A stretch of DNA of 8,834 nucleotides from the IMG/VR virus record IMGVR_UViG_2737471846_000017, positions 1 to 8,834 of that record; one strand, 5' to 3'. The position numbers are program-made. The stretch comes from a virus (Duplodnaviria > Heunggongvirae > Uroviricota > Caudoviricetes). Below are positions 6,001 to 8,834 of the stretch, in pieces; within the stretch, counting starts at the first letter, position 1, and each line of letters opens with the position of its first letter.

Positions 6001-8834
6001 GGCTGGTGCATGTTGGTACTGGCACAATTCGCCTTTGCTGAATATTCCCGATCGGCTGCTACTAGTGTGGCATGCCCCAAATGTAGTGGTACTGGGCGAA
6101 TGGAATGTGAGCAGCTTACACGTAAGGTTTCATACCCATGGGGTAAAGCACCATATTGGGCCAGTCGATCCCGCGCTGTTCGACCGTCAGACTGGGAGAA
6201 ATGGACAGAGGTAACGGAAGTTGTACCAGTCGTTTGCGATGTATGTAAAGGGAAGGGAGTGATAAGTGCCAGGTGTCGTTGTGGTGGAAAGGGAGAGGTA
6301 CTCGACCGCAAAGCCACAAGCGAGCGTGGTGCGCCTGTGTTTAAAATCTGCGAACGTTGCAGCGGAAATGGATTTTCTACGGTACCGTCTACCGCAGCAT
6401 ATAAAGTTGTACTGAAGCGGATACCCGAACTACACGTCAGGACATGGACACGTAATTGGAAGCCGTTTCTTGATTCTCTGGTTGACATTTGTCACCAGGA
6501 AGAGCGTAAGGCCGATATTGCTTTTCAGAATGTGACAAGTTTTGGTAATGATGTAAACTAAACTTAGGCTTTTTGCGATATAGCACTTGATTTTGTCCGA
6601 ATCTGTCATGTATCATTTTGATCATGCGGAATAATGCCTGAATGATTCTGACAGAAAGCCCCTTGAGGGGGCTTTTTTACTTCAATTGGCTAAAAAAACT
6701 TTCGAAATCACGAAGCTCAATCTCGTCTGCTGTTGATGAGTATTTTATCTTATTTGCAATAGGAAGCAGGTTTTTTTTGGTTAAGAACTTACTGGCTTGA
6801 TGTTTCAGGTTTTTTAATCGTATGATTCGTTCTTCGATTGAACTGGCGATTTGGGCAACATTGGAAATTTCTGGGCTTGGGGTTGTTTGCAGATCAATGC
6901 CCTGAATTTTCTTTAGATCTTCTTTGAGCGCAACAAAAAACTTACGAAGATTATTTTCTGGTAAAAGCACATGGATAAATGATACCTTTCCCATGTTGAA
7001 CTCACTTGTTGCTTCTCCAGATTCGCGCATGTGTTTATTCATTGCAAATAGAATTGTTTTGGTTTTCTTATCAGTTTCAACTTCTGATAGACTTACAATA
7101 CCGGTTTGAGATTTTGCCAATAAGCGTATTTCTGCTGCGCCAAGCCTGCCAGAGTAGTTATAGTTTTTACTATTTTCTATAGTAGAAGATAAATAATCTA
7201 TGGTGGGTTTGGTATTTCGTATGTTTTCAATGATTTTTTGCCATTCTTCGAGCTTATTTTTTGCTGTTCTGATAATTTCTCGATTGGTCTCGAGTTGCAT
7301 TAGTTTATTGAAGCTAAGAACATTCTCGCCGAATTCCACACCGAATTCGTTTTTGCCGCATTTATTGCCGATGTTAGTTTCAATGCCGCTAGAGGTCTTT
7401 ACAATATAACCCATTTGATGTGGTTGGTTGCAGCCAGTTAAGCCACAGTGGACTTCTTCCTTAAATTTGTAGTAGCCAATTATTTCCTCAAACTGTTGTT
7501 CTCCTTTATCTATACTGGCAACAAAGTTTGGTCTGGATGTGATTTCTTCCCAGTTATCAAGTTTCTCGATGCCGTTTTCTGTTCTAATAATAATCATGAA
7601 TCACTCCATTCGAAATCGGGAGTGTTCATTTTATCGCCATAAAAACGTGATCTCCATAAGTGATTTAATATTTAATTACTGAATATTATGTGAAGTGGGG
7701 GTGCTTTGCCACGTAGCTTAAGCCCGTCGACGAGCGGGTTTTTTGTATCCGGCATCCTGGGAGCTATACGGAAAGTACACAGAAAGGAAGGTGCGACCAC
7801 AATTAATAACAAAATCTTAAAAATCGCACATGGCACTATTAGTTTTCTAAATATTGTGTATTTTTTGTATTGCAGGATGACCCTGTAACGAAGTTTGCGT
7901 AACAGCATTTTGCTCTACGAGTTTGCCAGCCTCCCCCAGTGGCTGGCTTTTTTATGTCCGTAGCGTCAAAGCAGCAATGTCGCTGGGGCGTCGTGCAATT
8001 GGCGTTGAGCTGGAGAGCGGGCGTTTTGAGCAGACGGTCAGGGAAGTTCAGAATTTAGTCAGTCAGAACGGATGATATTGCAGAATTAGTTACGTACCGT
8101 TATTATCCTGCGCCCGGCCCTTTAGCTCAGTGGTGAGAGCGAGCGACTCATAATCGCCAGGTCGCTGGTTCAAATCCAGCAAGGGCCACCAACCGCCATT
8201 AGCTCATCGGGATAGAACGCCAGCCTTCTAAGCAATCGGTCACTGGTTCGAACCCAGTACAACGCACCACACTTATTTTCCCTCGCTCGCTTTTGCGGAC
8301 CTTTTTTGTATCCGCGCCACGCCCGGCGCATACCAACCACAGAGCCTTTCGGGGGGAGCTTACGGAGTGGTCAGTGTGACTTTCTCTGTGGGCAGATCGC
8401 TCCCGGGCGTTGGCTCACCCACCCAAAGGAACGTCACGATGTTTGGTATTTTTGGTAAAAAAAGCCCGCAGAGCGGCAACGGAAATTAAAAAGTTTGAAA
8501 AACGCGATCTGGCACAGGCGGTGATTAACGCCGCATACCTGGTGGCCTGTGCAGATGGTGAATGTGAGGCTTCCGAGAAAGCGAAGATCGAACAGGTACT
8601 GCGTAATCAGCCAGCGCTGTCCGCGTTTACGTCAGAAATTAATGCGATGAGCGCAACCATTATCGGTCAGCTGGATACGAACTTTAAAACTGGTCGTCGT
8701 GCGGCGTTACGTGAGATCGAGGATGTGAAACACGATACGCGTGAAGCGGAAGATGTGCTGGATGTGGCGGTGGCCATTGCGGAGGCAGAAGGCGAAATTG
8801 AGCCGGAAGAGTGTAAGGTGCTGGAAGAGATTGC

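Follow-up and report, generated by a model that had tools for sequence, protein, structure and literature searches.

The 3′ remnant of a DNA methyltransferase gene at a module junction of a lambdoid prophage

How did the last codons of a DNA methyltransferase gene come to lie directly behind a terminator hairpin, and do they serve any purpose there? The question is raised by an 8,834-nucleotide stretch of caudovirus DNA (IMG/VR record IMGVR_UViG_2737471846_000017, positions 1 to 8,834; the whole stretch is called the window here), in which a methyltransferase-like stump lies between Q and the tRNA genes of a lambdoid prophage. An earlier note on this sequence had attributed the loss of the rest of the gene to incoming AT-rich DNA carrying a gene for a 306-residue protein. 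Homology confirms the stump at 7962–8075 as a real 3′ remnant of a phage DNA methyltransferase gene; it is very probably an inert piece of a pseudogene, left over from an ancient joining of two phage modules that this prophage inherited ready-made. Positions 5600–8834 of the window are 100% identical to a prophage in three complete Escherichia coli genomes (2013C-4830, 2013C-3492 and 90-3040), and the window as a whole (8,834 bases) is 99.99% identical to the locus of 2013C-4830.

The stump and its intact relatives

The stump corresponds to residues 316–352 of an intact 352-residue DNA methyltransferase of the N6_N4 (beta) class, and its first codon is the Ser codon at 7962. It is followed closely by a putative tRNA promoter and a tRNA gene:

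7962–8075, + strand: methyltransferase 3′ remnant (37 codons and a stop codon), a pseudogene (protein and profile homology, nucleotide identity to phiP27, annotation by the Prokaryotic Genome Annotation Pipeline, PGAP)
8078–8106, + strand: putative tRNA promoter pT (TTGCAG, 17 nucleotides, TATTAT), just past the stop codon of the stump (kept in phages with the intact gene; colinear with 933W)
8116–8191, + strand: ileZ-type tRNA with anticodon CAT (colinear with ileZ of 933W; accompanies the methyltransferase 3′ end, whether stump or intact)

Translation of 7923–8075 on the + strand gives LPASPSGWLFYVR followed by SVKAAMSLGRRAIGVELESGRFEQTVREVQNLVSQNG and a stop codon, the methyltransferase part beginning after FYVR with Ser 7962. 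The stump is 83% identical to the intact copy of E. coli ‘numer 3’ (BLASTP, E = 2e-14), and hhalign aligned it with columns 316–352 of a profile built from four intact proteins (probability 99.1%, E = 6.6e-19). Three methyltransferase families of the PHROGs database, phrog_67, phrog_3008 and phrog_6952, match it at E values of 1e-8 to 3e-13, and a fourth, 50-residue family, phrog_14488 (E = 3e-26), is essentially the open reading frame (ORF) of the stump itself. The DNA from 7965 to 8212 is 94.5% identical to the end of gene L24 of phiP27 with its spacer and ileZ, and RefSeq carries, at exactly 7962–8075, a PGAP feature described as ‘site-specific DNA-methyltransferase, incomplete, missing N-terminus’. 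Pfam and NCBIfam, searched with the stump alone, gave a single match below threshold, from Pfam: PF01555 scored 12.7 bits (E = 0.12) on the 39-residue piece, under its gathering cut-off of 26.7, and the match covers positions 196–220 of 221, the extreme C-terminus of the model. Its family assignment needed profile–profile comparison and PHROGs.

The methyltransferase remnant behind a terminator hairpin described in the earlier note is thus a real feature, and the support from profile searches that the note had posed as a test was obtained. Its end, 8075, stands; its start, 7957 (about 38 codons), is 5–8 nucleotides too far left and out of frame. The stump begins 9–12 nucleotides past the terminator hairpin and its U-tract (7925–7953). 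The compositional edge on which the note had placed it is also present, with a GC fraction of 0.33–0.45 over about 6450–7950 and of 0.49–0.57 beyond, but the AT-rich stretch consists of three separate modules and is not a single cargo insert.

Intact proteins of this family carry DPPY at residues 35–38 and DFFMGSGS at residues 308–315. The window holds no coding sequence for residues 1–315 and so lacks catalytic motif IV (D/S-P-P-Y/F), and its homology begins at residue 316, directly after DFFMGSGS, so that the S-adenosylmethionine (SAM)-binding motif I (FxGxG) is missing too. Without the catalytic and SAM-binding motifs the stump cannot be an enzyme. What it retains is significant C-terminal homology to intact members encoded at the same genomic position.

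These intact members are numerous: in a tblastn search with the intact protein, 164 phage records covered at least 80% of it. The note had stated that related lambdoid and Shiga toxin (Stx) prophages carry a full-length methyltransferase here, and phiP27, Stx2a_WGPS2 and E. coli ‘numer 3’ bear this out; in all three the intact gene comes downstream of the Q region, with the same 40-bp spacer and ileZ behind it, then argN/argO, and then stx2 or TerB-type cargo. Intact copies in the same slot, from the Q region to the ileZ/arg tRNA genes, were also found in Stx2c phages, whereas mEp460 has lysis genes directly behind this gene and no tRNAs. The stump thus shares its slot, directly upstream of ileZ, with the intact phiP27 gene L24, whose homologues (PF01555) occur in Stx2a_WGPS2, Stx2c phages, a cdtI phage and mEp460; against the last 37 codons of L24 its identity is 89% in protein and 94.5% in DNA. 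The intact L24-type protein, with its 352 residues, DPPY and FxGxG, reaches 152 bits against PF01555, in contrast to the 12.7 bits of the stump, which is without residues 1–315.

The closest known counterpart is the ‘DNA methylase’ pseudogene of 933W-type Stx2a phages and prophages (933W, orf81 of Stx2 phage 86, PA28, ArgO145 and O157:H7 annotations by PGAP). It has the identical junction, hairpin followed by TTTTTTATGTCCGTAGCGTCAAAGC, the same length and the same downstream pT and ileZ, with 92–95% nucleotide identity across 7693–8115. The window differs from it upstream, where the partner is a 276-residue Q of the Stx2f-phage type together with the 306-residue gene and not Q933W, and downstream, where the cargo is a TerB-family gene and not stx2 and where argN and argO are fused into one pseudo-tRNA. 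This second ‘tRNA’ (8193–8269) is a chimera of the 5′ half of argN and the 3′ half of argO, fused at the GCCTTC that their anticodon stems share; the fusion removes about 90 nucleotides, and 6 nucleotides between ileZ and argN are gone as well. Because ARAGORN made no call and the Rfam score is 19.7 bits against a threshold of 29, the chimera is probably a dead tRNA.

The stump itself is already known, as a routinely annotated pseudogene common to hundreds of Shiga-toxin phages. At least 80% of 7690–8115 is covered in 213 phage records. An 82-nucleotide junction probe was fully covered at 95% identity or more in 542 of 5,426 complete E. coli genomes (about a tenth), often in several copies; the remaining genomes with a match have an incomplete junction, and in the examples listed the match is confined to the Stx1-type left half of the probe and stops at 7962. 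The equivalent probe spanning the same point of the intact gene was covered in 630 complete genomes. In O157:H7, too, PGAP calls the stump of an unrelated strain a pseudogene. Within IMG/VR, the set analysed here consisted of 54 contigs with the exact 25-nucleotide junction: in most of them a gene of the Q933W type ends 276 nucleotides upstream, others have differing Q genes 0.3–2.3 kb away, and the downstream cargo, where identifiable, is stx2 or a TerB-family gene. Previous work has recorded a regulator and a DNA methylase in the interval from Q to the tRNAs of 45-kb Stx2a phages, and their absence there from 61-kb 933W-type phages (PMC8456039; see also PMC3491183); these two papers record presence or absence of the methylase and do not discuss the stump junction.

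The leader upstream and the position of the join

The sequence upstream of the stump was read with the feature table of 933W, mapped onto the window by colinearity (window position = position in the 933W locus + 6192), and with predicted folds:

7662–7689, + strand: late promoter pR′, −10 element TATTAT at 7684–7689 (colinearity with the 933W annotation)
7696–7953, + strand: pR′ leader transcript, StxS homologue, long form of about 258 nucleotides (colinearity; 92–95% identity to Stx1 and Stx2 phages)
7703–7710, + strand: qut, mapped from 933W (colinearity)
7720–7751, + strand: first terminator-like hairpin, t1, with T-run and GTATCCG flank (fold; homology switch)
7722–7744, + strand: first possible terminator, mapped from 933W (colinearity)
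7925–7953, + strand: intrinsic terminator tR′ of the late promoter and 3′ end of the StxS-type RNA (fold; colinearity with 933W; PMC7547250), coinciding with the second terminator mapped from 933W
7957–7965, + strand: junction zone (three-way alignments; end of the left-half-only class at 7962; Thr in all intact alleles)

The pR′ transcript of Stx1 and Stx2 phages has its end 258 nucleotides downstream, at tR′, and in strain Sakai RNase E cuts it between GU and AUU to give a 74-nucleotide regulatory RNA, StxS (Sy et al. 2020, PMC7547250). By its position, the terminator at the edge of the AT-rich block is tR′, and the roughly 260 bp before the stump are a predicted StxS homologue: pR′, the region of about 258 nucleotides and a folding intrinsic terminator are colinear with those of the characterized phages, and 7693–7962 is 92–95% identical to 933W, Stx1 phage and H-19B. 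tR′ has a 7-bp GC-rich stem (7925–7931/7941–7947), a 9-nucleotide loop and a U6 tract (7948–7953), with a predicted energy of −14.5 kcal/mol (z = −3.3). The short form would lie at about 7869–7953, next to an RNase E-type GUAUU site (GTATT in DNA) at 7867–7871. The window’s segment is therefore comparable to the StxS/tR′ module of Stx phages, GUAUU site and terminator included; it adjoins the stump and is distinct from it, it sits in a non-Stx prophage, and it was read from sequence alone. Rfam has no family over the StxS region and found only tRNA.

The prophage thus carries an StxS homologue without stx genes, together with a Q (276 residues, Pfam PF03589) of another family than Q933W. Upstream of the −10 element the promoter is like that of Stx2f-type relatives and ‘numer 3’, not 933W, and the part of the region from t1 onward is like 933W and Stx1 phages. 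Homology changes from Stx2f-like to 933W/Stx1-like at t1 (7720–7751), which closes a segment of about 70 bp kept in phages with differing Q genes; the predicted fold of t1 is no stabler than that of shuffled sequence (z = −0.71).

A sensitive blastn search of 7690–8115 against 50,697 phage records resolved three classes of match. The query is matched over its full length by Stx2 phages of the 933W type. For Stx1 phages (H-19B, Stx1 converting phage and Shigella phage 7888) the match runs only from query position 1 or 4 to 273, covering window 7693–7962 and nothing beyond. Phages with the intact gene match only query positions 276–426, that is, window 7965–8115. The genome probe scan gave the same limit: the class that matches just the left half stops at query position 40, again 7962. 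In a three-way alignment the Stx1 phage reads GGCTGGCTTTTTTATGTCCGTA and then ACATCCTG, the window GGCTGGCTTTTTTATGTCCGTA, GC and GTCAAAGC, and phiP27 GGGTCGGGTTCGACG and then GTCAAAGC. As homology to the left parent runs to 7962 and homology to the right parent starts at 7965, the join lies at 7962–7965; the bases GC at 7963–7964 cannot be cleanly assigned to either parent. All 124 sampled intact alleles have Thr where the stump has Ser (AGC), and 7962–7964 is therefore junctional. Alignment to related prophages, the course proposed in the earlier note, has thus yielded both the full-length gene and a mapped breakpoint. The microhomology that the note had proposed to look for near 7950–7965 is weak at best and imperfect (GTCCGTAAC against GTTCGACGGTC), with only a gapped GTYCG.A.C common to both sides at the join, and is consistent with illegitimate or microhomology-level joining.

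Two other readings of the join were considered and rejected. An intact allele with Ser (AGC) at codon 316 would shift the junction to the left; a search of viral contigs for GGNTCNGGNTCNAGCGTCAAAGC gave one chance match in a tail-protein gene. The U-tract of tR′ might also have been derived from the codons of motif I, as MAFFT aligned the post-hairpin sequence TTTTTTATG with GAT-TTT-TTY-ATG. This register would demand a deletion of 7–8 nucleotides, and the likeness is read as coincidence because the U-tract with ATGTCCGTA occurs in Stx1 phages, which carry TTTTTTATGTCCGTA without methyltransferase sequence.

Origin and persistence of the junction

The intact gene belongs to a cassette of a small ORF, the methyltransferase, ileZ, argN/argO and cargo (stx2 or other), which many lambdoid phages carry. 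Two ways of making this join were weighed. In the one that we favour, an old non-homologous or microhomology-level recombination would have joined the end of a Stx1-type leader (pR′, StxS body and tR′) to codon 316. The join, falling just past the SAM-binding DFFMGSGS, would have cost the gene this motif and all upstream of it, the catalytic DPPY included. Measured against phages with the intact gene, about 1.4 kb (positions 2032–3448 of the phiP27 locus, holding the small ORF and codons 1–315) is replaced by 219 bp of StxS body and tR′ (7746–7964), and a segment of about 70 bp with the −10 region of pR′, the transcription start and t1 (7674–7745) is common to all arrangements.

The other way is a deletion in situ, in which an ancestor with pR′, StxS and tR′ ahead of an intact methyltransferase gene lost the interval from tR′ to codon 316. 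A single deletion is mechanistically the simplest event, and the T-run and ATG past tR′ do look, superficially, like the GAT-TTT-TTY-ATG (DFFM) codons of motif I. That T-run with ATGTCCGTA belongs to the leader module, however, since Stx1 phages have both without methyltransferase sequence, and where the gene is intact, the phage sequence from t1 to the gene is unrelated. The tR′ hairpin was found at none of the 124 intact-gene loci, 95 of which have at least 2 kb of upstream sequence. This absence favours a fusion of modules over deletion in situ, which we consider improbable.

The fused arrangement would then have spread widely in 933W-type Stx2 phages and in non-Stx prophages. The prophage studied here would have inherited it and gained its Stx2f-phage-type Q and 306-residue gene separately, by an exchange within the conserved pR′–t1 segment near 7680–7750.

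The 306-residue gene had no part in the truncation. The model of the earlier note, in which AT-rich DNA carrying that gene replaced the 5′ part of the methyltransferase gene in this prophage lineage, takes its appeal from the window itself, where the AT-rich stretch (about 6450–7950) ends at the stump and the gene lies between Q and the stump. The distribution data refute it, and it is scarcely credible now. The identical junction is present in 933W, Nil3, phi296 and hundreds of other Stx2 phages in which Q directly abuts pR′ and there is no 306-residue gene, and almost all of the 542 E. coli genomes with the junction lack that gene as well; among the 54 IMG/VR contigs with the exact junction, the gene is found in one, which is identical to the window wherever compared. 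Conversely, E. coli ‘numer 3’ joins the same 276-residue Q (PF03589) and a minus-strand homologue of the 306-residue gene to an intact 352-residue methyltransferase, and Stx2f prophages have Q and the 306-residue gene followed by stx2f, with no methyltransferase; Q and the 306-residue gene therefore form a module in their own right. Homology to this module ends at 7727–7751, more than 200 bp upstream of the stump, and the interval 7746–7962 is the StxS/tR′ leader as in Stx1 phages and 933W. The IMG/VR contig 2703718860_000024 (here L069) has a Q that is 98% identical in nucleotides to that of the window, only the last 73 nucleotides of the 306-residue gene, and the same stump; among stump phages without the gene it alone keeps such a trace. 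The region is heavily mosaic, as the note’s description of a recombinational exchange hotspot implied, but the 306-residue gene is not the cause.

The module itself spans 5731–7597, with the 276-residue Q and the 306-residue gene on the minus strand, and occurs also in mouse-derived and other E. coli prophages; in Stx2f prophages it lies directly upstream of stx2f. The 306-residue gene, flanked by Q and pR′, runs antisense to both Q and the late transcript, and its protein has no match in Pfam, NCBIfam or PADLOC; PHROGs placed it in phrog_7003, of unknown function. In L069 this gene is itself reduced to a stump: at 3480–3540 of that contig a remnant corresponding to window 6677–6749 is joined, via about 30 bp, to pR′, StxS and the methyltransferase stump.

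Three points weigh against an inert scar of a module fusion. The direction of the event comes from parsimony alone, which makes the Stx1-type arrangement the most economical left parent; this is not proof, and that arrangement could itself derive from the stump arrangement. Among the 11 stump alleles of the 54 contigs, which differ at up to 16 positions, there is neither a frameshift nor a premature stop, and this could hint at constraint. The 933W-type allele differs from phiP27 by three synonymous and three non-synonymous changes, too few to separate neutrality from selection. The open frame has another explanation, though. Polymorphisms of the stump (ETER, RRAT and DLASQNG) are those of the intact alleles, so exchange across the shared 3′ end and tRNA region explains it without selection; this sharing is consistent with ongoing homologous exchange and accounts for the open frame as well as constraint does.

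The same evidence bears on the proposal that the stump works as a small gene, for a peptide of 32–50 residues expressed from the late transcript, as some annotators have it (‘DNA methyltransferase’, phrog_14488). The frame is open in all 11 alleles, PHANOTATE and GenBank submitters call a coding sequence, and the stump has a PHROG of its own. Yet no recognizable Shine–Dalgarno sequence precedes the ATG at 7977, and the TTG start of the 50-residue ORF lies 2 nucleotides before the tR′ stem, so that this ORF crosses the hairpin. The fragment lacks the SAM-binding motif as well as the catalytic one, its PGAP annotation is that of a pseudogene, and recombination with intact alleles accounts for the open frame. 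We regard a functional peptide as highly improbable. As an inert fragment, the stump would enter RNA only as part of an untranslated leader, made by Q-modified polymerase on passing tR′, and it may have persisted by being short, lying between functional elements (tR′ and pT/ileZ) and being repeatedly overwritten by recombination with intact alleles.

Terminator flanks, other features and the use of the junction

A 13-mer, T6-RTRTCCG, occurs at 7739–7751, 7948–7960 and 8302–8314, twice as TTTTTTGTATCCG exactly and once as TTTTTTATGTCCG, and trails each of the three + strand terminators in 7700–8320 (t1, tR′ and the post-tRNA terminator). By chance 0.46 matches are expected, and three were reached in 3 of 200 shuffles. 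At each copy the homology partner changes, and the same flank trails at least 12 different hairpins in related loci. Natural variants resembling empty sites were also found: in an Stx2f phage (L012) t1 is followed directly by TTTTTTTATGTCCGTAA and stx2f, and in strain 1604D011 (L190) tR′ is followed directly by TTTTTTTGTATCCGT and the post-tRNA region. From their sequences these variants look like gain or loss of cassettes lying between the repeats. It is conceivable, if rather doubtful, that terminator U-tracts with this flank serve as short-homology linkers that shuffle the StxS body and the stump–tRNA cassette, so that the boundaries would be non-random.

In the TerB-family gene, within 8439–8500, a run of seven A at 8457–8463, checked only in the 2013C-4830 locus and one IMG/VR contig, stands where eight related contigs have six; the frame from ATG 8439 stops after 16 codons (MFGIFGKKSPQSGNGN and a stop), and PGAP saves the gene by starting it at the TTG of 8443. 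Either this is a true frameshift close to the 5′ end, or the source assembly has a homopolymer error. Between 6579 and 6681, just past the stop codon of Q, there is a promoter-like site (TTGATT, 18 nucleotides, TATCAT; 6587–6616) and a strong hairpin with a T-run (AAAGCCCCTTGAGGGGGCTTTTTT, about 6656–6681) that overlaps the 3′ end of the convergent 306-residue gene and may be a bidirectional terminator; the Rfam match there, to Phe_leader, is weak and at chance level. A different methyltransferase gene, for a Dam-like phage N-6-adenine enzyme, lies in the nin region (2484–3011) and is intact according to PGAP. As the prophage is flanked and interrupted by copies of the insertion sequences IS3/IS600 and has several pseudogenes, it is probably defective.

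The stump itself matters little. It shows the window to be a mosaic of three parts, in which the Q module is of the Stx2f type, the StxS leader with stump and ileZ of the 933W/Stx1 type, and the cargo of the TerB type. If the linker reading were true, the stump junction would be one product of linker-driven cassette exchange among lambdoid phages. The exact junction (TTTTTTATGTCCGTA, GC and GTCAAAGC) tags the fusion of a Stx1-type pR′–StxS–tR′ leader to the methyltransferase–tRNA–stx2 cassette, and is a convenient landmark for tracing the movement of toxin and other cargo modules between lambdoid prophages.

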